DNA of 64,000 bases from Lingula anatina (taxonomy: Eukaryota; Animalia; Brachiopoda), in contig CM120645.1 in NCBI GenBank assembly GCA_051362555.1, positions 9,920,001-9,984,000 of the forward strand, given 5' to 3'. The position numbers and the translations under genes were made by a program. Below are positions 14,435 through 63,697 of this stretch, one piece after another; position 1 is the stretch's first letter; each line of letters opens with the position of its first letter. The notes beneath the pieces are model-generated. The model saw only the letters and a list, made by a program, of their open reading frames with translations. It had not been told where the DNA came from and made no database searches.

Positions 14435-16152
14435 ATGGGTTTGAAGAGTTATGAAAACTTTTTAGGCTCTAACTTAACGCTTTCGATAGTTCTCTTCAAA
14501 GACGTAAGAAACCTTTCAGAAGTGAGAAAACTGGTCATTGAAGGAAAGTTTGAGGCAGCGCTTATTAAACCCAGTGTTGTAAGTATTTGGGGAAATTAAT
14601 TGTTTCATAAATCGCCAGTCACGTTTCTTTTTCACGACCATTTGTCACCTTGAAACTTGAGGGTTGATTCAGTACAATTAAATGAATGGCAGAATTACAA
14701 ACGTTTCCTGTTATGCAAATTCGAAATAAATCAATTTTAGCATGTTACCAGTAAACATTATATTTAGCATGATAAATCTAAATATTTTGTTTTGTTTCTT
14801 TAGTAACTACTAGTACTCTCATCTACAAGACACACTGAGGATCACTCTTTTTGAAAATCACACTTTAATGTATGTCTTATATTGTGAATTTTCCCTTATT
14901 GCAATGAAATGTTCAAGAAAGAGAATGCAATACTCGTTTATTCTATTTAACATTATATATTACTGTATATATATATGATTGTATACTATGTTTTAGTATG
15001 TTATGCTTTATGGATACTTCACTACTATTTGTACGAATCAGGAATATTTTAAAAAATGGTAGTTATATTATTAAGATAACATTGAGAAGTCAATAGACTT
15101 ATTGTTAGAAATGGGTATTACTGATTTAAACAGAGCTTACATTTCCACATATCTTTACCTCAATTATTTCCACATTCCATTGCCTTATTTCCAAATTTCT
15201 TAACATTTTCACAGATTTTAACTTTTTTTCCACATTTCACTCCCTTTGCTTTTAGGTTGTGGACCCTTTTCAAGTGCTGGTAGCAGTCAACAAGGCAGTT
15301 CACCTTCACAGTAACAACAAGAAGTATACCAGAACTCTGCATTCAGAAATCTTGTACAGCTTGGCTCCCTCAAAGAATGTAAGTCTGATCAGTGTATATG
15401 ATGGTTAATACATCTAATGATATAATTCAGGTCAAGAGCTATGAGATATTGTATGGTATAAGCTCCAATTAGTTAGTTCTGCAGCTGAACGTGGACGATA
15501 CTGAGTACCAAGAAAGTGAAAAAAAATTGTCAAGATTATATGCTTTAAATTAAAAAAATTGCTGCGCTTATCTTTCACAGATCTCGGACTCCTACAAGAA
15601 GTTTGGTGTCACAGATCAGGAGACTTCAGTGCTTATTGTCTCACTGGCTGAAGAGAGCACCAAGCTTCAAGACTTCCTTAGTGTGATTCAAGGACAACAG
15701 GTGGCGTTGGAGTCCTTACCAGAGTTCACAGATCTGGAGACTGTTAAAAAGGTCAGTAGCATGCTATTTCCAATGAGTGCAGGGTTGCCCGTAATGAAGT
15801 AATAGGGGAAACCAATTCAGAAAGTCCTTAATGATGTAGATGAAAGTTTCAGTTTTAGGGAATGTTTACTTATTTGACAAACAGATTACTTATGCTTATT
15901 TCTTATTACCTTCATGTGTCTGTATATAAATAGCGCTAGATAGCCTCTAGGTGGATTTAAAATAATCTTGTAGAGTGGTCTGTCTAAGAGAGAGACCTTG
16001 ATTGAATTACAGATCTGTGTGATTTTATAGGAATTCATTTTATTCAACCTTTTTTCCAGGTATACAAAATACCAGATATTGAACTCAGTATTGGAACGGC
16101 ATTGGAGGCAGTGGTTAATAGGATTGCCAGCAAGGACATAGTGTCTCTGTAG
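14435..16152 (+). CDS. TPRKB: EKC/KEOPS complex subunit TPRKB/CGI-121, 176 aa (exons 14435-14578, 15256-15378, 15581-15751, 16060-16152); missed by the ORF track
   Basis: Spliced translation [23 protein letters not shown]|[33 protein letters not shown]|[13 protein letters not shown]|[14 protein letters not shown]; all introns GT-AG, phase 0. Confidence 0.93.
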
Positions 16153-16484
16153 CGGAAGGAAAGAAGGAAGGAGAAATACACATAAAGCAGTGACAGACTT
16201 TTTCATTTTGTGTCATATTTACGGCCATAAAAACTGCAGGGTAGACACTGAATTATTATAACTGTCGGCAAGGTTTTGTTTCGTTAGTGAGAGGGACATT
16301 GTAGCAACAAAGGCACCAGTGAAGACACTCCCGTATGAACGAAGCTGTTAATAATAGAGGCATTTGTTAAAAAGACATAAAATTTTCCTTTTTGTTAAGA
16401 TAAACCACATTGTTATTTATTACAGGGATTTTTTTACACTCACTAAGGACAAACACTTGTTAAACGACGCGGACAGTAACAGAC

Positions 16485-16739
16485 ATGGCCTTAAGTCGCA
16501 ATCCGCTCATTGATCGAACACCTCCCATGAAAGGAAGTTTTCCTTTGGATCACGAAGGTGAATGTAAAAAGAAAATGAAGGAATATTTGCGCTGCCTAAA
16601 GAACAATAAGCAGGATAATTCTGCATGCAGGGACGTAGCCAAAGATTATCTGCAGTGTCGCATGGACAAAGATTTAATGGCAAAAGAGGATTGGAAGTCC
16701 TTGGGGTATGGAGACAAGGATGGTGGGAAGGGAGACTAG
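16485..16739 (+). CDS. COX19: Cytochrome c oxidase assembly protein COX19 (twin CX9C), intronless
   Basis: PPMKGSFPLDHEGEC-X9-C...C-X9-CRMDKDLM; AATAAA at ~16989. Confidence 0.95.
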   Translation: MALSRNPLIDRTPPMKGSFPLDHEGECKKKMKEYLRCLKNNKQDNSACRDVAKDYLQCRMDKDLMAKEDWKSLGYGDKDGGKGD

Positions 16740-30203: not shown

Positions 30204-41713
<11,510 letters not shown>

Positions 41714-44055
41714 CTGAAAACAGATCTGGTTTCATGAAAAGATCACGTACCACATGGAGTATTGAGCACAAAGAACAGTACATGGTTATGAAGTGCAAGA
41801 AATAACAGATTTATAATTCATTAGAAATCATTTGTTTTAAACAAGGAGAAAGATGTTGTTTTTTCATAGCGGAGGCATGGTAACATTTGTACATTATAAA
41901 CAGACCCCCTCCCCATTCCCAGTTGTTGTACATAGATAATGTATAAATCTCTCCTAACCTCAGTGTCTCATTTTTATGTACAAACATGCTGCCTTGTTTT
42001 AATTCCGGTAATTGTATATACTTGTACGTAAACAGACTACTATCTCTTTTGTATTGTACTAGAGATTATTATTTATAAAAAGTAACATTTTCTTTAGCAT
42101 AACACCTTGTAAATGTTGACAAATCAAAGATGTTTTTGGAGGCATGAAAGCCACTGTGTTATCAGTAGTTCAGACTGCACAGACAATATTGTAGGTCCTA
42201 TCATTAGTTGTAAACAGTGCTGCCATCTAGGGATTAAGCACAGAATTATTTTCCCATGACCAGTTTAGGAGGCACGGGGACAGAGAAGCAATAATTATTT
42301 AGCTGAGCACAGAAAGCATTTATAACTTATGTATGAATCCCATGCAAAGAAAACACACACTCTTTTATGAAATGTTGAGTGATTTCTTTTAAATGTTTTG
42401 ATGACAGAAATATGAAGAAAGGAGGAGAGAGAAAAATAATTATACCCTTGCATATTTTACATTGTCTTCCATTTTTCTGTGATTTTATCATTTTTGAATG
42501 ATATTAAATCATTTTTAAATTATTTTTATTTCTCACAGATTATAAAATAAAATTAAAATTTATGTATTATGTGCTAAATAACAGAATATAGTTGCCTTAA
42601 TTTTCGGATGTCAAGATCATGGCCTTGTAAATATTTCATTTGATTGTTGTTTGTTAAAATATAAAAAAAAAGTTCAATTTGTGAAAATTGTTATATGCTA
42701 AGAGACGATCTTCATCCCAATTAGCAATCTCAAGACTTTATTTTACCTTTCTCTTGAAAGAAGGACCTCAAAAAATTATGAAAGAGCACAAAAAAGATTA
42801 GTTATTATGTCTATGAGACTGCTCAAATTGTGTTTACCCCGTTATTATGAATTCAAATGGAAAAGATTGAGCTTGTGGATACTGTCTTCTGAAACTGAAC
42901 AAAGATGTCAGTTGCGCCAGGAATTTTCAGTGTGTAATAACAAATTTCTGGTCACATTTTAATGCTCATATAAGAATTCTGTGTGGTCTGTGATGTCTGA
43001 AACGATGTGTTGTATTATAAACGATACCTTTGTAGTAGTTGCTGTAGATAACTCTATCACTTTAAAATGAATTGTTTGTCAATTTTGTTGCTACATGGTT
43101 TTGTAGGAAAATACACATCTACATTTATTACACATCGCAATACATGCACATTGCAATTAAAAGAAATCTTTTTACCTTTCCAAAGTTAGCCATTAATCAG
43201 ATTCATTGTGTATATTTTGTAACTTCCTTGGTATATAGGAGGATTATTTTACCATTATTTTTCTACCCAAGTTTTAAAACGTTATTCCATATGTTTTGTG
43301 ATATCTAGTCCATAGTCTATACCATACATATGTAATACCTCCACTAAAATTACAAAGTTATATGGGTTCGTAATGTGAATTCATTTGTGTTCACTGTCTT
43401 TGCTGAAACTTATTCTGTTGGTTTTATTAACCAATTTAATTCACCAGATTTGTTATAAGGTTAAAATATAAAATAAACTATATCCAAAAAATGAGATATG
43501 GTTATTCGTTGTATCCATGTTTTTTTTTTTTTTTTACTGCATTTCATTTATGGGCCAGGCACGTGCGTGCGCACGCATGCACGTGCCACAGTCCAGGAAA
43601 GAAACCAAATTCAGACAAGTAAACGTACCAATATTTGGACGAGTTTCCAATGAATTAGAATCTGGATTAAGAAGGACTGCCGTTTCCATTTTTGGATGAA
43701 GATTTACTCGATTTATTTGCTGATCTTATGCGTGGATTGAGCCTGATCACCGTTTATAAATGTACAGTCTTCCGTTTACATTTTACTGCTTGCAGAGAAA
43801 AATGTTTTTCTGATATAATGCGCCTTATTTTAATCCCTTTCTTTGAACGACGATCTTGAGTAAGATTGCCTGTCATTGATCACCCTTTGCGCAAGGCACT
43901 GCGCCCGCAGACGACAGAACATGCCCTCCTTGTCGTAAACTCTAAGACAATTTAAGAGGCTGTCGACGAAAAATCAAGTTCGATGATCGATTTTTTCATA
44001 TTCCTCCCAAACACATGATGGTTTTTGTTAATCTAGAAGTTGCACTTCATATAAT

Positions 44056-45575: not shown

Positions 45576-48500
45576 ATGGATCCACCGATCATAAACAAAG
45601 GATCTCCAGCATCAGAGCCAGATTCAGCGAGCTCTGATCCCAAGGCCACAGGACTAGTGCAGACTGAAAATCCATCACCAAATTCCTGCGAGGGGGGTGT
45701 AGGGGATGCCCCAGCCCCTGCACCACAGGTAATGCACTGATCAGTACTGATAACATGTTCCTACTTGTTATTGTCAAATTTACCTGATTAGACAGATTAG
45801 TTTGATATAAGGTTGATACTGATATATATGGGAATATTATAACTTTCAATTTTGCTTTCAGATTCATATTGCTTGACAATTCTTAATTCTCTTAATTGTT
45901 ATATTGTATTTTATGTATCTCTCTACAATACACATGGACATACAGGTAGCAGTTCGTTGCCTGTAAAGATGTTAAGTTTGCCTGATTCACTGCAACTGAG
46001 CAGTTGGTTCTTATAGACACTGAATTATGTCTACTAATATGGTTCATTTATGAAGTCAATAGAAGACTTAGGCAGCATTCACAACAGAAGTTGATTCTCA
46101 GCCTAACAGGTCAGTGGATCAAGCATGCATGGCCTACCGACTTGAAATCTTACCAGTGGGGAATCTGTACAGTGTCTATTATGGAACTATGCAGCAAGCT
46201 TTCAAGGGGCATCTGCCGTATTTGGTCCTCGGATCTGATAATTAGGCCACGGATCTACTTGTTGTGAATGTACCATTAGACTTTCACTGTGCAAATTAAT
46301 TTGTTTATAATGTGACTTTATAATCTAGGCACAGTGCTATGTGTAGTTTATGGCATATTGTTGGGTTTGTTTCAGACAAAGAGTGATGAGACCCCATCCA
46401 ATGTTAAGACACAGTCAGTTAAACCAAAGGTAGGAATTCAAGGACATTTTGTAAAAGATTGAATATATATCAAGACTATCTCTGCAATGTACCTGGGTAT
46501 CAGCTAGGGCAAGAAATGCTTTACGTATTAATCTTCTTCATTTTGTCTCTTTTTTTTTCCTGAAAGAACCACCCTTTTAGCTGGAAAAGGTCTGCTTTAA
46601 ATTATCAAATTATGAATTAAATTTAATATGTACGACAGGCTTCTCAAGTCTTTGCAGTTTTTCAATTTTGATTGACTGATGGGTTTAAAAGTTCACTTTT
46701 TCAGAAAAAGAAGCCCCATATGAAATTTCTGCCTTCAGACCTGATATACCCACTAAGTTATGTGAGAAATTTCACCTCTTCCGATTTCAACAGACTTTAT
46801 TAGTTGCAGCTTCTTCCATTTTTATGTCTGCCCCTGACTTCAGTAAATTTTACAAAAACCAAGTCTTTGACATGTTCAAATTTACAGAATAACTAAAATG
46901 TTTGCCATCATAAAACACAGTTTTTTAAATTATGTATATATACATGTAAAAAGTCATAGCGGGATGGTTTTCCAGATAAGATCCGGGTACATCTGTTTTG
47001 TGTGCACTAGGTAAATACATACCATATGCAGGTACATGTTGTTGTATGTTGCATAATTCATTGTTGCTGTTTTTTTTCATTAGAATAGAAACACCACATG
47101 CTATCTGTAGACAGATTTTTCCATTGGTTATATGAACATATAAATGAAGTGTTCGCAATTCTGATGCGATCATTTCACGCTTTTTCACGCATATTGCTAC
47201 AAACATTAATTTATTGATCCCAGAAATCGGCTAGTACGGGTAAGAAGAAAGGCAAGCAGTCCAAGGGACCCACACTGGAAGAACTGAAGAGAAGAGGACG
47301 AGACACCCGCCAGCACCCCCACCAAGATAATATACAGATCATGGACAAGATGGCTGACCTGGTATGTTATGGCTGTTTTGACACTTCTTGATGATGTTTG
47401 CCATGTTCAGAATTGACCGAAGCTGTGACTTAAGAATGTTTGAAAACATGAAGTGTCATCCAAGCTCCTAAATTAATCTAATTAATGTTATCTTAGTAAT
47501 CTTTGCCAGTTTTATAATTGGTCTATGCAGTTCTAATACACTTGATTAGTGTATTCTGAATATAACTGATTTTAAATTTAGCTCAGGAGGTTTGTGTGTG
47601 TGGTGGGGAGGGGGGGGGGGATACTGATTGTTAATAACATACATGTATAATTGCTATGGGTAATTGGGAAAATAACACTTAAAGCATGTTTGTCTTTTAT
47701 AGCTGAACGCTTTTTACACAATTTTCTGTGTGAAATTATATGGTTTTTCACTTATAAATAATTCTTTGAACTTTCTTTATTTGCAGTCCATGAAATCAAT
47801 GAAATTAACAAATCTGGGGTAAGATTAAATTTTCAAATAAATATTAGACTTTACTTGTTACAAGTTGTTCCTTCTCAGTAATTATGAATTATTGCTGAAA
47901 ATTACACTAGCTTCCACTCCTGTGCAGGTTTTATTTTCAAGATTGGAAAAATTTGTCAAGATAGAAAATCAAGGCACAGTAACTACTTTCAAAATTTCCT
48001 ACAATATTTTAATAAGTATGAATATAAGAATATGCAGCAGGCTTGAATGGAAACAGTTATGATACAAAATAAATATTTTACCTTTGAGTAAACAGTACTA
48101 CATAAAACCCATTTTATTGATAAAATTTCAAACTGAAATGAATCAGATGTACAAGGCAACTTCACTGTATATTTTATGTTTACATGTTTGTTTTTTTAAA
48201 ATTTATATTTTATCGGTGTCAAATTCTTTTTCATATAGTACGGGGTTGATCTATGATCACTTCATGACCCAGCACAGGTGTGAGTGGGACCTCCTGCACC
48301 CCGAATGTCCTGACAGGATAACAGAGCCTTATCTAAGATGTCTACAGTATGGTCTGGTCACCAGATGTGTACCCATATTGGTAAGTACAGACCCAGTAGG
48401 GGATAAATGCGGACCAAGTAGGGCATAAATTTCAGAGAAGGGCATAAATTTCTTTTGTACACTGGTTGAATGACCAGAATTACAGTAATGGTATAGCTAT

Positions 48501-51500
48501 CGTTTTTGAACATTTATTTAAACAGTATGGTTTTACTTTCATCATATTTGTAATCCTGTTTATTGTTTTATTCAGATAAATATAAACAAATTTGAAAATG
48601 GTCAGCTGTATTAACAAGTTTCAGGTTTATTAGTACCACCAGCGTGTACGCTGGCGGTACTCATGGTTTTAGTCCCGACCCGTCTCGTACAGCTCCGCCG
48701 GCTCCTGCGGCTCCGCCGGCTCCTGCGGCTCCGCAGTCGGGCGCCGGAAACAAGTCACCGTTACCGCTTCTCCTCCTAGACCGCAAAGACCTGTGTCCCC
48801 ATCTCTTGGATTTAGGTCACATATAATCTCAACTTGAACACCCTGGTTTTTTTGTCTCCATCGGTGCACTGGCCTGGGCATGACGCTTGTTGAAACGCAC
48901 CCTTGTCAAAATTTTTGAAAATTCAATGCTTAATATCTCCCAAACCAAAGGAATTATGGGAAAAATTACTAAAGAAGTGTGACCCGAAAGTCATATGTGG
49001 AGATTCCAAATATGCCCTTGGATTTGACTTTTGACCTTTTTTTCAAGGTCAAACAAGCCAAAATTTTCTAAAAATGGGAATTTTCTGTAAAAAAATATTT
49101 GTTTGTGCTAATTTTAGGAAACTACACAGCCCTAAGCTCTCCTGTTATAATGAGGGGTTACCTTTGGGGACTCCTTTCATCTTTGGGAGTTTGGGGTCAT
49201 TCGGTGCATTTTCACGGGAGAAGCAGCCATTAGATACCGAAACTGAAAACTCGCTCTAAATCTGGAACGGTAAATGCCAGAGACCTCTTTTTTATTGCAT
49301 TTTGTAGACCTTGTCAAGTGCAATACTGGCGGTGGTGTCCATTTTTTTGTTTATGATATGGTTTAGGCGTTGCCCTATATCAAAAATTACAACATCACAA
49401 TATTCAGTGGGGAAAATGTGAAATACTCCAAAATTAGCAGAGATACGCCCATAGTTACTATTGAACTTGAATAGGAAGTCATATACTGATAATCTAACTG
49501 TGACCTTGAAATTGACCTTTGACCTACTTTTCAGTACTGCACTTTGCAAGTTTTCTGATCTTTATATCTCCAAAACTGGCAAAGATACGCCTATAGTTAC
49601 TATTGAACTTGAATAGGAAGTCATATACTGGCAATCTAAATATGATCCTGAAATTGACCTTTGACCTACTTTTCACCATGAACTGAACTTTGCAAAATTT
49701 TCAACCCTTATATCTCCAAAACTGGCAGAGATACACCCATAATTACTGTTGAACTTTAATAGGAAGTCATATACTGGCAGTCTTATTGTGACCTTGGAAG
49801 TGACCTTTGACCTACTTTTCACCATGAACTGAACTTTGCAAATTTTCTATCCCTTATATCTCGAAAACTGGCAGAGATAAGTCCAAAGTTACTATTGAAC
49901 TTGAATAGGAAGTCATATACTGGCAATCTTACTATGGCCTTGAAATTGACCTTTGATCTACTATTTATGATGAACTGCACTTTGCATGTTTCCTGGCCTT
50001 CATATCTCCAAAATTGGCAAAGAAATGCCCATAGCTACTATTGAACTTTTATAGGAAGTCATATACTGTGACCTTGAAATTGACCTTTGACCTACTTTTT
50101 CACCACAAACTGAACTCTGCATATTTTCTTGCCCCTCATATCTTCAAAGCTAGCAGAGATCTGCCCACTGTTGTCCCTAGGTTTTCTCTTTTGTCAGCAA
50201 ATATGCAATACTGATAACGCATTTCAAGGAAAACCAATTGTCTATTGTCTAGAAAATCACAGGAGTGATCAGTGTTAGGAAAATACAGCTCAATTTGAAC
50301 AGTTGCTTGTTTTGAACAGTTATGTTTGTTCGATATATATATATATATTTTTTCATATTTTGAGGACACTTGTTTATTGCATTTCATAGAGCTTGTCAAG
50401 CACAAGACTGGTGGTGGTGTTCATTTTTTGGGGATGGGGTTTCCATGAGAATGCGCTTACTCCAGCTGGTGGTACAATATCCAGAGGCGGTATCGCCTCT
50501 CTGATCCTCTAGTTTAGATTATATGTTTACAGCAGATGTTTGATAAATGACATAACAAGTTAGTATGGCTGACATGCCTTCAAGCGTCATTTTCAGTTAA
50601 GCTAAAATGTGTTATTGTAATTCCTATTGATAATTTCATCATGAGTACAAAAAATGAGTTAGAGTTAATTAAGTGGCATTACACTGCATGTCTACAGAGT
50701 ATTATCTATTTTTTTTCAGCATATTTACATACACTGTAAGCTCTCAAGTGTACTGGGCCATACTAGCCACTTGAGCAATTAAAGTGAATACTGAATCACT
50801 GATATCAGTGATATGTGAATGTAATCTGATGAATTTAACCCGGTGATGATCTTGACTTCACAACCTTGATCTACTGTTCAATTCCAGGCACGGACTGCAA
50901 GTGAAGACACTATTTTAACTCTGCATCACCCAGAATTAGTTGCTAATGTTAAATCCTGCTCTGATCAGGATGTTAAGGGGTTAAGAGAGCTTTCCAGTTC
51001 GTTGTATGATGATGTTGTGTTTCATAATGTACGTTCCCACTAGAGGTCACTGTAGAACACACTTTGTTTTGGCCAATTAACCAAAAATTTGACCAATTTG
51101 TGAGAACATAACTAACTGATAAAATTTTCCTATTTTCATTGATTATTACATGTTCTCACATTAATATTAACAGACAGTCCTTGTAATGCTACCTTAGCCT
51201 TGTCACATCTGTTTTTTTTAACAGCTTGCTTTTTACCCTAGCTGTCCCTGCTGGTATTGTTTTTATCCAAGTCAGCCTAGTTTTAGCTTTTTACATTTCT
51301 TACTTGATGCCTATTTATTAAAAAAAACTGGTCTTCAACATTAACCTGTTTTAAAACAACATGTGTTCTTGTATATGTCATTGTATTGCCAAGTAAGTAT
51401 GGATGCTGCCAAATTGATCAATATTAAATGGATAGAGCAATGTCTATATGTATTTCAACTGTGCAAATTAAAAAAAAAAAAAAGATAAATTATAGTACTG

Positions 51501-54500
51501 TAGGCATCTTGCTCACTGGTGTGTTTAGATTTTATATAATTTTCTTGCATTTCGAACAGGCTATTCTAACATTTTCTCCACATGTTTACGTTCCAACATA
51601 AATATTTAATCTGATTCAGTGGTGAACTTATTCCTCAAAAGCTACTGGTACTTACATGATACACGAGAAAACAAAGTAGAACAAGAAACCAGCTGTTATT
51701 TGGTGAAAAAAGGGGACATACTGGTACATATGATAATAATCAATATAAGCCTGAATAAAAACTGGATTTTCACTTTTTACCCAACTAAATAAGTTAAACT
51801 TTGCTTTGTATGCTATCTTTGATATTTTATACATTTGAGTATGCTCTGGTGACCTGCGGGGAAAATATTTGAATAGCCTGTAAGTGAGCCTTCTCCATTT
51901 TCTTACTTGTCACCACTGTGCAGTATTTTCTGTATTTGCTTGCATATTAGTAGACTAGCATTAGTGCAGCATGAATTTAATGTTTATCTTTTTGATGAAT
52001 GTTTGTTTGTATTGTTTGTTTTTCAGACAGGTGTTTAGAATAGGAGTGTAGCAAATCTCCCCTAGTGGTTGCATGATTTTGTAGCATTTAATTTGCAGTT
52101 TAATCATCAATTTCTATTTATTTAGGATCCTTTAGGTGAAAGAAATGCAGTGCTGATATCATATTATGTCCAAAACATGATTGAGAATATATTATTTTGG
52201 CCAAAATGCCACATTTGTTTGTCTTTATGTTGGGATTTCAAAAATGTAAGGATATATACTCGATGTATCTTTGTCTGAGCTGGGGGTCATGGCAAATTTC
52301 CAAGGTGAAGGTCATTTGAGGTCAAAATGACGTATGAAAAAATCCATTTATATACATGTCCAATTTCACAGTTTTACATTCCTGAAGATTAATTGTGCCA
52401 TTAAGACAAGAAAAATGATGAATATGAAGTGCTGCTAGGACAACAAAACGTTGAACCTTAGTATTGCCATGAAATCAACAAAACTGATGAGCCTCACTGT
52501 TACCATGACAATATGTAAAATTCCCCATCTCTCTGAATTTAATTAACATCATTGGGTGGGGGAATTAGTCGTTTCAAATACTACCGATTGTTCCAAAATG
52601 AGCTCAAATTTTTGTCTTACATTTTCTGAGCACAATTGGTAACTTAGCAAATATGAAAAGGGAATTCTGCCATTCAGTGAAAGGTTACTTTATAGTGTTC
52701 TGAGTTGCCTATCATTACCAAGGCTTTAATGTATCTGACTTGGAAGTTATGGAGTTTTCTTTTGTTTTCTGATTTCCACCCAGAGGAAGACAGCAAATCA
52801 GATTGAGGCAGTTTAATTTAAGAAACTCAGTGCTCAATCATTGGTGATTTTCAAAGAATTTATACTCAGGTTGACTTGACATATTTAAATTAGGAATTTT
52901 AAAACATAAAAACAATTATGAGGTGCACACACATTTTTTTCTGTTTTAATTTAAGTGATTTGGGTAATTTCAGCAATTAATATTATATTCATATTTACAT
53001 TAATTTATATTCTTTATTTAATATCAGACAAGTCTTGCTTTTAAATTACTATGAACTTTTGATTTTTATGAATATTTCATTTTGTAGCCCAAAAAGTCTG
53101 TTGATGAAGCTGCTCTAAGTCAGCATAGTCCAGAATACCTGAAGCTTTTGAAGGATTCTCAGTTCCTTAGTGAGATCCAGCCTCTTCAAGACCTCTCAGA
53201 AAAATATCATGGCATTTATTTTAACAGTGTATGTACACAACAAAATATATTTTCCTGGAAAAAGTTTTTTTTTTTTCTGGCAAAGTGTGTGCTCTCTCTC
53301 TCTCTAAGTATACAGTGCTGAGTGTGATATCTGTAAAAACCGAACTTATTTTAACTTTTTATTTATCTTAAGAAACAAAGACTGCTAGCTTTTGTTCAGT
53401 TTCTGAATATAACAGAAGTTTATTTTTCAATACTGTTAGCTTATCCTATTTAGTTTTGCTTTGTGTTTTGCCTCCTTGTTTAAGGTGTCAATGTATTTTA
53501 TATCTTTTTGTCCATTTGCTTCCTTTTTTTGTTGCTAATAGTTGTAGCTATGAATATATGTGTGCACATTTTTGTATCTTGGTCACCAAGCTGTTATTAT
53601 GGCATAAGTTAAAGAAATCCTTGATGGCATTATTTGTTGAAAATGACGGGAAGTCCTGTGGATTTGTAATGTTTCTGGCAGCAGTATTAAACCCCAGCAC
53701 CAATGTCCACATTAGCACTCGCACAAACAACATCTCAGTTCCACTAGCTTCTAAACTAAGATATTTTACCATTAAACTTCACTGGATGATTTTTCCTCAC
53801 CAGAAAACCATTCCTCCACTTATTCTGACAATCTGTGATCATTTGTAGCCTAAAATGACTTCAGAGAAAGGGCACTCCCCAGAACCCCTCTTACCAAGGG
53901 GGGTCCAGACACTCCAAGACCTCTCGGGGAAATATGACTCCATTTACTTCAACAGCGTAGGTGCACGACAACGGTATCTTGAATTATTTAAAAAAAGAAA
54001 AACTTTTGAATGGAAAACAAGATATCTGAGAATTAAAAAGAATAATGGCCAAATCAGCACTGTAAATTACAAGAAAGTGCTGTTATAGCTTTTCATTGTG
54101 CAAGCAAGCACCTGCATGGCTTCCACGTAGTTAGTGCTTTAATGTGACTAACTTAAACAAAGTTAAATTATAATAACCAATTACTTAGGATTAATTTGTG
54201 CTGTTCCGTTTTTAACAAAATTGAGTTAGATAAAAATGAATTTATGTACTTTTAATTTTGTTTTTTCCCTTGCTTTTTATCATACCTTGCAGCTTTTGCT
54301 TGCATAATTGTACCACCAGCGTTAGCGCTGGCGGTACACATGGTTTCGGTCTCGTCCGGATCGTTCCGCCGGCTCCGCCGGCTCCGCCGGTTCCGCCGGC
54401 TCCGCCGGCTCCGCCGGACGGCTACCGTTACCGCTTCTCCTCCTAGACGGTAAGGCCCCCCATACCCATCTCATGGATTTAGGTCACCTATAATCTCAAC

Positions 54501-57500
54501 TCGTTCCACGTAAAATTTGGGCTTTGTCGGTATTGGGGTCTGGGTGTGGCACTCATTGCAATGCACCCTTGTCCAAAAATGGCAAAATTAAATGCTAATT
54601 ATCTACCCTACGGAAGGAGTTACGGGAAAATTTTCTACAGACGGCTTTCCAAAAGTCATATGTGTAGATTTCAAATATACCCTCGGATTTGACCTTTGAC
54701 CTTTACTTCAAGGTCAAATGGGCCAAAATTTTCAAAAAAATGAAATTTTTTACGAAAAAAAAATTTTTTGCCCTGTTATTCAGACACCACACAGACTTAA
54801 CCAATAATATTATTGGAAAGTGTTACCCTTCAGGTCATCTTTCATCTCCGTGAATTTGGGGTCAATCGGTGCATTTTCACAGGAGTAGCGGCCATAAGAT
54901 ACCGAAACTGAAAACTGTCTCTAATTCGGGAACCGTTAATGCTAGAGACCCATTCTTTTTTGCATTTTGTAGAGCATGTAAAGCCCAACACTGGAGGTGG
55001 TCTCGGTTTTTTTGTATTCCATACGGTTTTCGAGTTACGCTGTATCAAAAAGTACATATTGGTGGTGAAAGGAAAATGTACGGAAGCCCACTGGTGCCAT
55101 ATGTAGAAAAAAAAATTATCTCGAAATTTCGAGATACTATTTTGAAATTTGAACAAAAAAAATTTACCACCAGCGTTAGCGCTGGCGGTACACATGGTTT
55201 CGGTCCCGTCCGGTCCGTTCCGCCGGCTCCGCCGCCATGTTACCGTTACCGCTTCTCCTCCTAGACGGTAAGGGCCCCCGTACCCATCTCATGGATTTAG
55301 GTCACCTATAATCTCAACTCGTTCCACGTAAAATTTGGGCTTTGTCGGTATTGGGGTCTGGGTGTGGCACTCATTGCAATGCACCCTTGTCTAAAAATGG
55401 CAAAATTAAATGCTAATTATCTACCCTACAGAAGGAGTTACGGGAAAAATTTCTATAGACGGCTTTCCAAAAGTCATATGTGTAGATTTCAAATATACCC
55501 TCGGATTTGACCTTTGACCTTTACTTCAAGGTCAAATGGGTCAAAATTTTCAAAAAAATGAAATTTTTTACGAAAAAAAATTTTTTTGCCCTGTTATTCA
55601 GACGCCACACAGACTTAACCAATAATATTATTGGAAAGTGTTACCCTTCAGGTCATCTTTCATCTCCGTGAATTTGGGGTCAATCGGTGCATTTTCACAG
55701 GAGTAGCGGCCATAAGATACCGAAACTGAAAACTGTCTCTAATTCGGGAACCGTTAATGCTAGAGACCCATTCTTTTTTGCATTTTGTAGAGCATGTAAA
55801 GCCCAACACTGGAGGTGGTCTCGGTTTTTTTTGTATTCCATACGGTTTTCGAGTTACGCTGTATCAGAAAGTACATATTGGTGGTGAAAGGAAAATGTAC
55901 GGAAGCCGACTGGTGCCATATGTAGAAAAAAAAATTATCTCGAAATTTCGAGATACTATTTTGAAATTTGAACAAAAAAAATTTTTATCTCGAAATTTCG
56001 AGATAGCATTTTGAAATTTGAACAAAAAAAAAATTATCTCGAAATTTCGAGATAGCATTTTGATATTTGAGCAAAAAAATTTATCTCGAAATTTCGAGAT
56101 AGTATTTTGAAATTTGAACAAAAAAAATGCTATCTCGAAATTTCGAGATAATTTTTTTTTTCAACATATGGCACCAGTCGGCTTCTGTAAAAATGTGCAG
56201 TACGGTAATGGATAATAAATTTTGAACTCCGGAAAAATAAAACATAATGCTTGGCAAAGCAGACAACTTGTGGTCAAAAATGACATTATTTTATCAAATT
56301 TAAACTTCTGCAACTTCAGAGAACCTCCCATTTCAAGAACTTTGACCAAAATGACCTTTTCTTTATTTTAATTAATTTTTTCTGTAGGCAATTTATGGCA
56401 CATTATGGTAACTCCAAAATTATAACATTTAGTCCCTTATATCTCCAAAACTGGCAGAGATAGGTCCATAGTTACTATTGAAGTTGAATAGGAAGTCATA
56501 TACTGGCAATCTTACTGTGACCTTGACATTGACCTTTGACCTACTTTTCACCATGAACTGAACTTTGCAAATTTTGCTTCCCTTTTATCTCCAAAACTGG
56601 CAGAGATAGGTCCATAGTTACTATTGAACTTGAATAGGAAGTCATATACTGGCAATTTTACTGTGACCTTGAAATTGACCTTTGACCTACTTTTCACCTT
56701 GAACTGAACTTTGCAAAATTTGCTTCCCTTTTATCTCCAAAACTGGCAGAGATAGGTCCATAGTTACTATTGAACTTGCATAGGAAGTCATATACTGGCA
56801 ATTTTACTGTGACCTTGAAATTGACCTTTGACCTTCTTTTCACCATGAACTGAACTTTGCAAATTTTGCTTCCCTTTTATCTCCAAAACTGGCAGAGATA
56901 GGTCCATAGTTACTATTGAAGTTGAATAGGAAGTCATATACTGGCAATCTAAATGTGACCTTGAAATTGACCTTTGACCTACTTTTCACCATGAACTGAA
57001 CTTTGCAAATTTTGCTTCCCTTTTATCTCCAAAACTGGCAGAGATAGGTCCATAGTTACTATTGAAGTTGAATAGGAAGTCATATACTGGCAATCTTACT
57101 GTGACCTTGAAATTGACCTTTGACCTACTTATCACCATGAACTGAACTTTGCAAATTTTGCTTCCCTTTTATCTCCAAAACTGGCAGAGATAGGTCCATA
57201 GTTACTATTGAACTTGAATAGGAAGTCATATAATGGCAATTTTACTGTGACCTTGAAATTGACCTTTGACCTACTTTTCACCTTGAACTGAACTTTGCAA
57301 AATTTGCTTCCCTTTTATCTCCAAAACTGGCAGAGATAGGTCCATAGTTACTATTGAACTTGCATAGGAAGTCATATACTGGCAATTTTACTGTGACCTT
57401 GAAATTGACCTTTGACCTTCTTTTCACCATGAACTGAACTTTGCAAATTTTGCTTCCCTTTTATCTCCAAAACTGGCAGAGATAGGTCCATAGTTACTAT

Positions 57501-59581
57501 TGAAGTTGAATAGGAAGTCATATACTGGCAATCTAAATGTGACCTTGAAATTGACCTTTGACCTACTTTTCACCATGAACTGAACTTTGCAAATTTTGCT
57601 TCCCTTTTATCTCCAAAACTGGCAGAGATAGGTCCATAGTTACTATTGAAGTTGAATAGGAAGTCATATACTGGCAATCTTACTGTGACCTTGAAATTGA
57701 CCTTTGACCTACTTTTCACCATGAACTGAACTTTGCAAATTTTGCTTCCCTTTTATCTCCAAAACTGGCAGAGATAGGTCCATAGTTACTATTGAAGTTG
57801 GATAGGAAGTCATATACTGGCAATTTACTGTGACCTTGAAATTGACCTTTGACCTACCTTACAATGAACTTAACTTTGATTGCACCATTTTTAGTTATAT
57901 ATATTTTTTGCATATTTTGAAAATTCTTGTTGATTGCATTTTTACAGCTTGTCAAGCACAAGACTGGTGGCTGCACCCCTTATTTTGTGTATGTGGGGGT
58001 CTATACGAATGCGCTTGCTCCAGCTGGTGGTACAATATTCGGAGGCGGTATCGCCTCTCTGATCCTCTAGTTATTTAGATTTTTATTGTAAATTTGTTTC
58101 AAAAATGTTTTGATTTGATTTTAACTTTATTTAATAAAGGTATAATAATGGACAAATTCATTATAAATTGTTTTGGGTCTGTACTTGTTAGTAATTTTTA
58201 ACTGAATTATTAAATTAATGATTATAATAATGGTTAAATAGTATAGTCTTTTATCATTTGAGAATATATTTGATAGAAATAAAAAAAGAGAATGATTAGT
58301 TCTTATTGCCAATTTTCAGAAAACATTTGAATGTGCACAGCTTTCTCTAGGCAGTACCATAGAAATGACAGAACAGATCTTGCAAGAAAAGGTCAGTTTA
58401 CACATATTGTTATAGACATGTTAACTTTGGCTCTATTCCCATAGGTTTTAGATCGATCTATCCCCGCGGGGAGTCTCACTAGATTACTTTCAGATAATCC
58501 GACTTAAATGTCCGTCCCGCCTACTACAAGCTGTAAGGAGGTAATTAACTTTCGTGTCCGCCCGGCTGACAGCTATTTAGCGTGAACCCCCAGGGAGTTA
58601 GGTCGATCTAAAGTAGGTCGATCTAATCTATGGAAATGGGGTGTTTGATTCATCGTGTAGAGGTCCGAATATTATTTTAAAGACATGTATAGATTATGTG
58701 GAAAAATTAATGACATTGCATATATATTTATAGATGGTATTGTTTGTGTATGTCTGTTTATGAAGTTTATTTATTTCAGGTTAGAAATGGGTTTGCCATT
58801 GTAAGGTAAGCATTAAAGGAGGAATAATAAAGTTATAAAGATTATCTTGTACCAGTAATTAAAATGTTAAGTTTTTAAACATACCCATTTTTTTAAAATA
58901 TCATTAGAATGTACTTCTCACTGCAGATATTTCAATATTAAAAAAAAAAACTCTTTAAGTAGTCCATAGCCATTTAACATGTTTAAAAGGTTGAGACTTT
59001 CAGAGCTGGGCTTCTGTATCTCTTTAATATTACTAAAAAATAATTTTTAAACTTGCTATTTAATTCCTTTCCAGACCCCCAGGTCACCATGCAATGTACA
59101 AAGAGGCCTGTGGATACTGCTTCTTTAACAATGTGGCCATTGCTGCAAAACGCGCTCTGGACAAGTTTGGTCTGGAAAGGTACTCACTATGGGCTTATTC
59201 TCAATGAAGTTTTTGTTTGATTTAGATTGATGCAACTCTGCAGGGACTCTTGCTGAATGCAATCAGATTGACAGATTAACACCCCTCCTCCTGGCATTGA
59301 GTAGAATTCAGAAAAGCTGGTGATTATACAAGTACGTTGGAAACAAGTGGAGGCGTTTCAATTTGTTTGTTTGCATTAAACAAGAGTCCCCATGATTGAT
59401 CTACTTGGTACGGTTCTTTCAGTGGAAATGGGCCTTAAGCTCTTTGTCATGTTTGTTTTATATAGTGCTATAATGTCAAGTATTCAAGGAATGGGTGAGC
59501 TGGTTTGAGGGAAAGTATATAGAAATCAGGTATGTGTTTGGTGTGGTATGGTCTAATAATTACTGAGATATATTTCAATGT

Positions 59582-59615
<34 letters not shown>

Positions 59616-61996
59616 GTCCATGCCAATATACTTATTGCTTTACAGAACATAATGCCAAAAATTGTCAATATTTAAAACCACTGATTTCTAACTGACTGTA
59701 TATTTGATATGTCAGGGTGTTGATAGTGGACTGGGATGTCCACCATGGTCAAGGCACACAGTACATGTTCTATGATGACCCAAGGTAAGAGAAATAGATG
59801 GAATTAACTTGCTGAATTAAAAGTAATAATAAACTGATGGTATTTATAACTTGATGTAATGCTTTGTAAAAGATATATGAAAGGGATGCTTTCAATTGTT
59901 TTGAAAAGCAAGTTTTGTTCGTAGGAGAAAGTCTGATTTTGTAAGAAACTTGGAAAAATTAGTGACCTGTGAGGGATGAAGATGAAACAGGAAATGGTAG
60001 TTTTTATATATGTCAGACTGAGAGCCTAAATACTGTCATATTGCACATGAAATATAAAATGTTAATAAGCTATTCATAAATAATAATCCTGGTGCAAGTA
60101 TTTCAGCTTGTGTTTAATTATTATCATATATGATACAACTACCAAGCTAATGAACATGTTTGCTTAATAATCCTGGTGATTTTGTGTCTTTCAGAGTGAT
60201 GTATGTGTCTATCCACCGCTATGAGTATGGCAATTTCTGGCCAAACCTTCGAGAGTCCGACTATGACTATATAGGAGAGGGTCGAGGTACAGGCTACAAC
60301 ATCAATATACCTCTCAATAAGGTAATTATCACATTCATCAAATGATATTATTGGCATAAAATTGGAGAAAGGGATTTGATTTTATTCAAAATAGACACAG
60401 CTGTCCTGATGCTGTGCATGATCAGTTGATATGATATCTTGGTGACAGAAATAAAGTTGGAATGAAAAAGTGTATATAAGTGAGTTGAAATAATTATAGT
60501 GACTGAAGCAGGGATGAGATTTTTCTGACTATTGGCAGATTTCAGACCTTTTAGGTGGTGTTGATGCTTACAACAGTAATGAGATTTTTCTGGCATATCT
60601 GCAAATTTCTGACTTATCGGGAGCCAGAAAGTCTCATCCCTGATATATAAGTAAAACCCTATGTATATAGATATTTTCTGCTCTTGATATTGTATAAACT
60701 TGACTATATGTCTGTTGGAATGTGCAATTGTTTTGCAAGGTGGCTACAAAGAACGTGCAGTTAGAAAAGGACATAACTGCTAATTTTAATATAGCAAATT
60801 AATAAATTTAAAAACAAGACAAGAATACTACTGTTTATTCAGTCCAGTGAATTACTTAATGAAAACACAAGTAACTAGACAAGAACTGTGTTACACGTCA
60901 ACTCATAATTTAATCCACCGAATTAATACATTTAAACGCAGGGAAGACGAGTTTAACTGTTTATTCATTTCAGTGAATTTATAAATGAAAACTTTGGTTT
61001 CAGACTGGTATGACTAACAGTGACTACATGGCTGTGTTTCATCAACTACTCATGCCTATATTCTATGAGGTAATGGAAATCTTGTTTCAATTAAAATTTA
61101 CCTTTTTCTGTAATAATTAGGTTACTGCAGTGTTAGTAAGATATTATGTTTTGCAATTAGTAATGATATTGAATAATTGCATTAAGTAAGATATTTGTTC
61201 ATACAGTTAGCAAATGATAAGTAGAGAACAACAATTGCTTATGGCTAAGAGCAATATTTATTATTTTAAAAGTGTAATACAGCTGTATAAACTATTTTAA
61301 GTTGAAAATTGTTGTTTTAGTTGTGAAATTGCACTAGGTGTGACAAGATTGAGATTGTATTAGGTGTGACAGTGTGATATTGTGGTCATTGTGGTAGGTG
61401 TGACAGTATGATGTGGATGGCATTGTGTTTGTTGTGACATTGTCATATGGTTGACATTGTATAAGGTGTTACAGTATGGCAGGTTTGATTGTTACAAGTT
61501 TAATATTGTGTTAGGTGTGAATGATAAAGTTGACATTATATTAAAATGTATAACAGTATGATATTGTTAACATTGTGTTAGGTGTGCCAGTGATATGGTT
61601 AACATTGCGTTAGGTGTGACAGTGTGTTGGCTGTGACAGTGTGTCACATGTGACAGCTGAGTGTGTTGAATGCTCCATTAACAATGATATTGGACATCCC
61701 TTTACACTTCTCCCCCATACATTACAGTACAACCCTCAGCTGGTATTGGTCTCCTCTGGTTATGATGCAGCTATAGGATGCCCAGAGGTACAGATGTGCA
61801 TGCTATATACTGAGTTTCCCCTGTGTTAGAAATAGCAACACCTGTTCAAGAAACTCATTGTTTACACTGCTTAGGTTATTGTACACAGACCAATAAGGGT
61901 GTGGTCCACTTTATTTGTGCATGTTCAGACATCACTTTTTTTTTTCAATCCAAAAAGAGACTGGTTTTACTATTTCAAACTTCTCGGTCAAGCCAA

Positions 61997-62038
<42 letters not shown>

Positions 62039-63697
62039 TGAAACACATTTTTTGGCAAAAGTAGATATTGTTTAAAAGCAGGCAGTTGCATGGCACTATT
62101 ATTCGACCAGAAGTTGTGACATTTTGATCTCTTACTTGAAATAATCATAGGTTATATTACTCTAGATCACCATCACCAAAACAATTTTCTTATTAAAGAT
62201 AAAGGAGCAATTGATATTGCACAAACAGCATGGGTGTCAATCAGTTTCTTGAACAGGGAGATTGCAATTAGTCCCATAGCATGAGTGTTATGCTTGTAGT
62301 ACTAATTATTACAGTGCCAGTACTAGTGTTCTTCCTTTTCCTCCTTTAGTTTTGTCCCCAATTGGTTATAGTTTCTAGTGGATTTGACTCAGCACTTGGA
62401 GACGAGAAGGTATAATACCTGATGCTACTTTTGTGTTCTTTGAACAACCATTAACTGTCTTAACTTGTTTCTACTTACTATTTTCTAGTTACTTTTTTGT
62501 AATGATATTGAATACAAGTTTCACAAAAGATTGTTTTGCCCCCCCCTCCAAAAAAAAAAAAAAAAAATTGGTCTAAATTTTTAGATCTCAGCATTTTGCC
62601 CCACGATAATCTTATTCCGTAGTATTAGTCTAATTTTATGAAGTGTTTGTCCTCTTCTTGTAAGAAGAAAGACATGACTGATGTTTCAAACCAACACTTT
62701 TTTAGTGGAAAACTGCAGATCAGGCAGACCATATATTTTAGTCCAATAGTTTTGCCCAATTTTGAATGACTGCAGTATCTTTTGTGAAACTGCTCAGTTT
62801 TGTAATGTCTTACCCTTCCATTTGACAGATTGCTCCTGCTTTTGATTATTTATTTACAAAGATTCATGAATTGATGTAATCAATGTTTTTAAAAGTTTTA
62901 CTTACTAGTAAATGTTTTAAATTTGTAAAGAGTTAAAAGTTCACTTGTGGCACTCACAAGTATGGAAAGATAAAAACATTTGATAGAATTCTGATCTCTT
63001 TATAATATGATTGAATGTAACTTAAAAACTATTTTAATACAGACAAATATAACATCAGCTTATATTTTGCTAAACCTCAGGCTGTTTACTTGGCTGTTAT
63101 AAGTTCTTTTCTCACAAGTACACAGTTTTTTCAATCATTTGTCCAAAAATATGCACTTGCATATTCATTAGTTTACCTTTGTTGTATTGTAGGGAGAGAT
63201 GGAGGTGACCCCAGCTTGCTATGCTCATTTTATCAACATGCTCAGTGCTCTGGCTGATGGCAAACTGGCTGTTATACTAGAGGTAAATAAATATGTTGAA
63301 ACATGTGCCAGTGTGGTAGATGTGACAGTGTGTTGGGTGTGACAGTGTGTTTGATTTGACTGTGTTTGGTAGAACAGTGCACTTGGTAAATGTGTGGAAG
63401 TTTGACGTGAATTGTTGTTATAAATTTAACAAGTACCTTCCAAAAATCATCTACATAAGACATAATATTTAATGTCCATATTTTTTAAGAAATCAATTTT
63501 TAAACTTTGATAAAGTGTTGAGCAACACCACATTTTAATCACCACTGTTTAAAGTAAAAATATATGACCTGGACATTATGCTCTCCATAGGGAGGATACT
63601 GCCTGAAGTCTCTGTCTGAGGGCGTGGCTCTCACACTGAGGGCTCTACTGGGAGACCCGACACCAAGGATAGGACCACTACAGCAGCCTAATGATGT
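45576..63697 (+). CDS. HDAC6: Class IIb histone deacetylase, HDAC6-like (N-terminus and catalytic domain 1; 3'-incomplete). Exons 45576-45728, 46376-46429, 47224-47361, 47787-47818, 48239-48380, [50888-51028 | 53088-53228 | 53849-53956], 58320-58391, 58780-58805, 59075-59179, 59716-59784, 60195-60321, 61004-61069, 61728-61787, 63193-63282, 63591-63697
   Basis: Basic N-terminal [20 protein letters not shown]; [14 protein letters not shown]; [25 protein letters not shown]; [13 protein letters not shown]; [19 protein letters not shown]; LEGGY; all splice phases consistent. Confidence 0.9.
48629..50514 (+). mobile_element. Helentron-associated interspersed element (HINE/DINE-like) with ~5 internal ~146-bp repeats
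   Basis: 5' taccaccagc..gctggcggta hairpin, (ccgccggct)n microsatellite, central tandem repeats, 3' subTIR gctggtggta, stem-loop agaggcggtatcgcctct, ends ctagtt. Confidence 0.8.
50888..51028 (+). CDS. HDAC6: HDAC6 alternative exon A (141 nt)
   Basis: ccag|[47 protein letters not shown]|gtacgt, phase 0/0, no stop. Confidence 0.8.
53088..53228 (+). CDS. HDAC6: HDAC6 alternative exon B (141 nt)
   Basis: gtag|[47 protein letters not shown]|gtatgt, phase 0/0. Confidence 0.85.
53849..53956 (+). CDS. HDAC6: HDAC6 alternative exon C (108 nt)
   Basis: gtag|[36 protein letters not shown]|gtaggt, phase 0/0. Confidence 0.75.
55898..56189. mobile_element. MITE nested in the HINE, internal ~42-bp repeats with palindrome tatctcgaaatttcgagata, 6-bp TSD aaaatg
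   Basis: aaaatg|tacggaagccgactggtgccatatgt ... acatatggcaccagtcggcttctgta|aaaatg. Confidence 0.8.
56435..57875 (+). repeat. 146-bp satellite array, ~10 units
   Basis: atctccaaaactggcagaga at 56441, 56587, 56733 ... 57755. Confidence 0.95.
58428..58644 (+). mobile_element. MITE-like repeat, same family as 12727-12953
   Basis: Shared internal sequence and imperfect TIRs. Confidence 0.7.
61330..61660 (+). repeat. Degenerate minisatellite (ttaggtgtgacagtgtgatatggttgacattgtg-like)
   Basis: Repeated ggtgtgacag motif at roughly 30-40 bp spacing. Confidence 0.65.

Follow-up and report, generated by a model that had tools for sequence, protein, structure and literature searches.

Two exon duplications in the first catalytic domain of Lingula anatina HDAC6: an L2-loop cluster and a protostome Glu/Lys gatekeeper pair likely to switch substrate preference

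An HDAC6 gene with two sets of tandem exons

The window analysed here, a stretch of 64,000 nucleotides (nt) from the brachiopod Lingula anatina (GCA_051362555.1, contig CM120645.1, positions 9,920,001 to 9,984,000, forward strand), carries the HDAC6 gene of this species. In the part encoding the first catalytic domain (CD1) lie two sets of tandem exons: three L2-loop exons, A, B and C, and further downstream a pair, D and E, each ending on the gatekeeper residue of the active site. A query with exon B returned one protein, P0006 (RefSeq XP_013408875.1, histone deacetylase 6-like, Lingula anatina), whose exons are placed by tblastn on the window from 45576 to its end. P0006 matches zebrafish HDAC6 with E=1e-246 (HMMER) and has the features of a class IIb HDAC6: tandem deacetylase domains (two, PF00850), the RPPGHH and DWDVHHG motifs and a C-terminal ZnF-UBP (PF02148). 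The first coding exon (45576..45728, +), with its ATG at 45576, is supported by tblastn of P0006 and by junctions; the gene extends beyond the window end.

The L2-loop exons are framed by two constitutive exons of the same strand. The upstream one (48239..48380, +) carries the CD1 L1 loop, has no HDAC10-type insertion and is the donor for B and C; it starts in phase 1, and its translation from 48240 reads TGLIYD...CVPIL. The downstream one (58320..58391, +), confirmed by junctions, reads KTFECA...QEK. Between them, exons A (50888..51028, +), B (53088..53228, +) and C (53849..53956, +) measure 141, 141 and 108 nt, all in phase 0/0 with an open frame and bounded by AG/GT, exactly as described in a first-pass annotation that a model had made from the letters of the window. 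It had recognised the locus as HDAC6 CD1 and the exons as paralogues of its L2-loop segment; both statements hold. A hidden Markov model (HMM) of the L2 segment, built on 113 homologues, scores the three exons at 35, 37 and 24 bits; 100 shuffles of each stay at or below 6.7 bits, and five deuterostome controls score 42-67 bits. A loose scan of the 10-kb interval for stop-free AG..GT segments gave seven candidates, with A counted twice for its two donors.

The same annotation had called the three exons strongly diverged. This holds for A and B, identical in 8/47 residues and 75/136 aligned nt, and fails for B and C, which share 75/108 aligned nt (z=10) and 12 of their last 15 residues, the similarity extending past the exon into the donor-side intron. 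Judged from these identities, exon C arose from B more recently, with a deletion of 33 bases that leaves it shorter by 11 codons, and exon A is an older copy. In a tree of 47-residue L2 segments, which has no starred branch, B and C stand together (91/89) and A is unplaced. Exon C retains the canonical YDSIYFNS; exon B has lost YDS and reads a non-canonical YHG instead. Its residue pair HG occurs in none of 119 homologues, where we counted DA 65 times, DS 43 times, other pairs 7 times and 4 unparsed cases. Exon A keeps consensus residues that B has lost, despite the low identity of the two, and only 4% of its shuffles remain stop-free, so it was long under selection. A search for docking/selector pairing in the A/B/C region found nothing convincing.

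The D/E pair (61728-62409), absent from the first-pass annotation, lies downstream of the L2 cluster between the constitutive exons 61004..61069 (+; junctions and tblastn) and 63193..63282 (+; GEMEVT..., tblastn). Exons D (61728..61787, +) and E (62350..62409, +) are homologous, 60 nt each, in phase 0 and bounded by intact AG/GT sites, with 34/59 nt identical (z=4.9); the frame of E is open. The gatekeeper is the last residue of both, Glu in D (GCPE) and Lys in E (GDEK). Residues 1-20 of exon D align ungapped to zebrafish HDAC10 255-274, ending on E274; exon E matches the segment of zebrafish HDAC6 CD1 that ends GDPK on K330. By alignment, the D isoform carries the HDAC10-type glutamate gatekeeper and the E isoform the HDAC6 CD1-type lysine.

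The intron between D and E contains an inverted repeat (61841..62257, +) whose arms, 61841-61860 and 62238-62257, are complementary at 19/20 positions. This was equalled by 0/200 dinucleotide shuffles and 0/15 other intronic stretches (best 18), and the extended duplex has -37 kcal/mol. We regard the stem as a candidate splice-choice element. The intron as a whole folds no better than shuffles (z -0.65), and only the 20-nt stem stands out. A TACTAAT branch-point-like motif is found near 62300 in the same intron.

Splicing of the tandem exons in RNA reads

RNA data were raw-read runs under the same species label. About 6% of every run was read, or 25% in the case of X7, and junctions were listed from 3 reads upwards. 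For A, B and C, runs X1, X4, X5 and X6 were mapped on 50530-54290; an earlier mapping over 20 kb included X2 and X7. On the shorter interval the flanking exons are recognised from loose read ends; counts of joints and of loose ends are not strictly comparable.

The only joint within 50530-54290 runs from B to C (53228->53849): 21 reads with 16 starts, GT..AG, all from X1. Loose ends in this run give 9 reads for upstream->B, 10 for upstream->C, 4 for B->downstream and 22 for C->downstream; from loose ends alone, the isoform shares are very roughly 15% B-only, 30% B+C and 50% C-only. Exon C is thus used alone or after B in X1, where B alone is minor. In X4, X5 and X6, B is joined to the downstream exon by 7, 4 and 10 reads (and to the upstream one by 5 in X6); the depth of exon C is 0 and only B is spliced. 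RefSeq XP_013408875.1, like X1, includes B and C together.

Alternative splicing, as proposed in the first-pass annotation, does occur at the locus, in the form of B-only, C-only and B+C junctions, and both B and C are joined to the two flanking exons. The mutual exclusion at the core of that proposal does not hold: because of the B->C joint in X1, with 21 reads vs 4 for B->downstream, and of the RefSeq B+C model, B and C are alternative, yet not mutually exclusive. The absence of a B-C junction had been suggested there as a check, and routine co-inclusion named as a refutation; the junction is present in X1. Exon A, expected to be joined in the same manner, has no junction row in any of the four runs X1, X4, X5 and X6 (at least 3 reads needed). 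Its depth there is 0, 1.1, 1.1 and 0.3, vs 0, 0.6, 1.1 and 0 in the adjacent intronic bin, and its bin in the 20-kb mapping has 0.26 in X2 and 0.25 in X7. Splicing of exon A is unsupported, not disproved.

Exon C is polymorphic at the amino-acid level. X1 reads carry P13Q, T21I and L25F, and RefSeq S10L, P13H and L14F; no frameshift or stop occurs among the variants of the window, RefSeq and X1.

A 33-nt segment at 52070-52102, covered by 25-31 reads, was rejected as an exon, as both its ends continue into unrelated sequence; it comes from a transcript of another locus.

Further downstream, the junction 61069->61728 into exon D is carried by 45, 42, 9 and 3 reads in X1, X2, X4 and X7, and D is the major form in the runs mapped.

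Gatekeeper forms across animals

The gatekeeper has been characterised in PMC5454378, which places K330 of HDAC6 CD1 (C-terminal acetyl-lysine) and E274 of HDAC10 (acetyl-polyamines) at one position, occupied by Leu or Met in the remaining human HDACs. According to the same paper, K330 dictates anionic substrates in CD1, and the E274L substitution in HDAC10 lowers polyamine activity 20-fold and raises lysine activity about 100-fold. It also describes a helix, etaA2 (PECE), as needed in HDAC10: upon its removal, polyamine activity falls 15-fold and lysine activity rises 16-fold.

Across 119 homologues, the CD1 gatekeeper is E alone in 85, K alone in 21, E followed by K in 6, M followed by K in 1, and other or unparsed in 6; where E and K are joined in one model, E precedes K in 6/6. 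We then picked 20 multi-member isoform clusters for taxonomic spread, 16 of them protostome. Both gatekeeper versions are found in 13 of these 16: in 9/10 clusters (oyster, Daphnia, Aedes, Polistes, Penaeus, Lineus, Tubulanus, Haliotis and Schistocerca, not tick) and in 4/6 further ones (Hermetia, Cydia, Pecten and the rotifer Brachionus, not scorpion and not Teleopsis). A sea urchin cluster has K only. Same-length models with a single exon of the pair exist in 12 other species. Models that co-include the two exons (D->E) occur in oyster, Lineus, Penaeus, Daphnia galeata, Hermetia and Cydia, the last showing its K version only within such models, so strict exclusion of D and E is unproven. In 13 species pairs, chosen for having both versions, the motifs GC.E and GD.K are invariant: column 18 is C vs D and column 20 is E vs K in 13/13 each.

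No alternative version of the L2 segment appears in the 18 clusters, of the 20 picked, that have a printed CD1 L2 segment, so that the L2 exon cluster, seen in Lingula only, looks lineage-restricted.

A different pair is present in three amphioxus clusters, GDRM/GDPK, with a Met vs Lys gatekeeper at the same site. The Branchiostoma models P0222, P0329, P0332, P0334, P0223 and P0336 carry these alternatives, identical in 16-17/20 residues; they may represent an independent duplication. In the rotifer Brachionus calyciflorus (P0017, P0338), the CD1-type domain, with its GCFE/GDEK pair, comes second, behind a CD2-type domain (GDPL); the order is normally the opposite. Decapod crustaceans (P0007-P0014) have an HDAC6 of about 2000 residues, in several with three deacetylase domains.

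Proposed roles of the two exon sets

The residue with a proven role in specificity is the gatekeeper, and it is switched by the D/E pair rather than by the L2 exons. On balance, we favour a history of two exon duplications in CD1: an L2 cluster whose exons B and C are used alone or in combination and whose exon A shows no splicing, and a protostome Glu/Lys pair that likely switches the substrate preference of CD1 via alternative splicing. The Lys form (exon E) would favour C-terminal acetyl-lysine. The Glu form (exon D) would prefer cationic substrates, for instance acetyl-polyamines, and this probably only in part, since the etaA2 helix is missing; because L1 lacks it, we do not class this isoform as an HDAC10, and it may work in a partly HDAC10-like manner. 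A single HDAC6/10 pro-orthologue would then provide, through splicing, functions that in vertebrates are divided between HDAC10 and HDAC6 CD1. Somewhat more tentatively, one HDAC6/10 gene may have supplied since early protostomes both a polyamine-leaning (Glu) and a C-terminal acetyl-lysine (Lys) deacetylase by this exon switch, with the Glu form as the invertebrate counterpart of HDAC10. Such a switch would matter because annelids possess hdac6/10 genes (PMC12153100) and some arthropods, namely fly, mosquito and scorpion, have one class IIb gene (PMC7288346).

Several observations weigh against this interpretation. The etaA2 (PECE) insertion was not found in Lingula L1, which aligns ungapped to zebrafish HDAC6 CD1. 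Among the Lingula joints listed, beside which 211 further joints exist, only the D junction is seen, and the bin of exon E has a depth of 0.23, 0, 0 and 0.54 in X1, X2, X4 and X7. The tick, scorpion and Teleopsis clusters showed the Glu form only. Cross-species support comes mostly from automated gene models, several with both exons joined. The first 17 columns fail to separate Glu-type from Lys-type exons in the 13 species pairs, so one ancient origin of the pair, which the shared order and motifs make likely, is not proven. Exon E scores above exon D against HDAC10 (19.5 vs 17.5 bits), so that the GCPE exon need not be the ancestor of HDAC10; with the 17 columns uninformative as well, we discarded this descent as unsupported.

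A less probable account, which we still take seriously, is that the D/E pair is real and yields no polyamine deacetylase, the Glu/Cys exon tuning or damping CD1 or serving other basic substrates. The absence of etaA2 speaks for it, given the shift from polyamine to lysine activity reported on its removal from HDAC10, as does the invariant and unexplained Cys in place of Asp at column 18. Against it stands the Glu itself, present in 13/13 Glu-type exons at the position where one substitution reverses HDAC10 specificity.

Tandem duplicated alternative exons that retune one protein are known from PKM1/PKM2, ketohexokinase A/C and FGFR IIIb/IIIc. Like them, exons D and E are paralogues equal in length and phase that exchange a functional segment; the pair differs in that the swap falls on the gatekeeper of substrate charge, its two states match two separate vertebrate enzymes, and in-frame co-inclusion is annotated in several species. 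With vertebrate HDAC6 (K330 in zebrafish, K353 in human), Lingula HDAC6 shares the two deacetylase domains and ZnF-UBP, the ungapped L1 and, in exon E, the GD.K end. The vertebrate-dominated set P0227-P0317 shows one gatekeeper form, GDPK in 80/91 proteins, whereas Lingula carries a pair of gatekeeper exons and a trio of L2 exons. With HDAC10, it has in common the Glu of exon D at position 274; it differs by the missing etaA2 insertion, by GCPE instead of GDPE and by an intact second catalytic domain and ZnF-UBP.

Both GC.E and GD.K versions are already present in RefSeq HDAC6 isoforms X1/X2 of insects, crustaceans, molluscs and nemerteans, as automated models without functional interpretation, and tandem retuning exons are already a known kind. 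Searches of the open-licence literature turned up no description of either exon cluster; subscription papers and Drosophila catalogues of mutually exclusive exons may list D/E. The pair provides two natural isoforms that differ within 20 residues, one of them at the specificity-reversing residue, testable in insects, Daphnia and oyster. It touches on two open questions: what HDAC6 CD1 does, and where polyamine deacetylase activity comes from in animals whose only class IIb gene is this one. Work on invertebrate HDAC6 may unknowingly have been done with just one of the isoforms.

The L2 cluster is a Lingula case of tandem exon duplicates, apparently decaying in complementary ways and spliced in combinations. 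After B was duplicated, B would have kept its N-terminal helices and drifted at L2 (YHG), and C would have kept the C-terminal YDS part and lost helices in its N-half. Since the copies kept complementary halves, B+C would form the pocket closest to the canonical one, along with a 36-residue loop-out; B-only would give a variant pocket, and CD1 would probably be damaged in C-only; exon A, the older copy, would be rare, stage-restricted or recently silenced. A composite of the N-part of B and the C-part of C scores 44 bits on the L2-segment HMM, above each exon by itself, and 137 bits with flanks, vs 133 for B and 130 for A, with C split. HMMER aligns the B+C protein to zebrafish HDAC6 in two parts, the B N-part to residue 213 and the C C-part from 241. 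It is therefore likely, in terms of alignment, that B+C rebuilds a normal pocket around the loop-out. An AlphaFold model of B+C has predicted local distance difference test (pLDDT) values of 94-98 at residues 171-200 and 241-260 and of 48-58 at 201-230; it agrees with the loop-out and is not independent of it, because its alignment A1 has a gap at 203-238. Other facts tell against complementary decay: C-only makes up about half of the X1 upstream junctions (10/19), which is odd if C-only is damaged; the variant L25F falls in the supposedly kept half of exon C; and the splicing difference between X1/X2 and X4-X6 may be genotypic.

We give a comparable, lesser weight to tolerated drift, with C decaying, A recently silenced and splicing noisy since the second catalytic domain has the main activity. 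The loss of 11 codons and the many amino-acid variants of C fit this view, as do the finding of the cluster in Lingula only and the scores of A, B and C (22-37 vs 35-69 bits), which fall short of all four controls from vertebrates and hemichordates and match or come close to that of amphioxus. Drift accounts poorly for the exact YDSIYFNS that C preserves and B lost, for the dominance of C-containing forms in X1 (22/26 junctions into the downstream exon) and for the intact frame of all C variants. It is unlikely, in our judgement, that the contrast between X1/X2 and X4-X6 reflects genotype instead of regulation, with exon C missing, or impossible to splice, in certain populations or cryptic species that share one label: three runs from a single study give exon C a depth of exactly 0, another study a high one, and the runs differ in similarity to the window, yet C is carried by the window, the RefSeq individual and X1/X2, and its bin in X7 has a depth of 0.45.

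Very improbable is the first-pass model of three mutually exclusive exons giving three CD1 specificities: all three are open, in phase and matched by the family profile, A with its retained consensus, and B-only and C-only junctions occur, but exclusion of B and C is already refuted in X1, A has a depth of 0-1.1, that of the neighbouring intron, and the 18 clusters have no second L2 version. Its argument from the Asp at HDAC10 D94 is weak as well, for according to PMC5454378 this residue corresponds to S568 of human CD2 and D94A causes no substantial change in zHDAC10 kinetics. The labels S150/S531 for zebrafish HDAC6 come from that annotation and were not found in the literature searched.

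Intronic repeats at 48630-50515 and 54307-58070 are strongly transcribed, other loci contributing a depth that reaches about 1000-fold; 54325-56020 holds a duplicated unit of roughly 850 nt, and 56430-57860 a tandem unit of roughly 160 nt. A small element at 58435-58644 has terminal inverted repeats (ATTCCCATAG...GATCGATCTA), shows numerous fold-back reads and resembles a miniature inverted-repeat transposable element (MITE). Neighbouring genes lie at 36300-41715 (+), 30006-18470 (-), 14241-11157 (-), 15554-15799 (+) and 16464-16736 (+); by eye, we take them to be copine, FAM120-like, ALG10-like, TPRKB-like and COX19-like.

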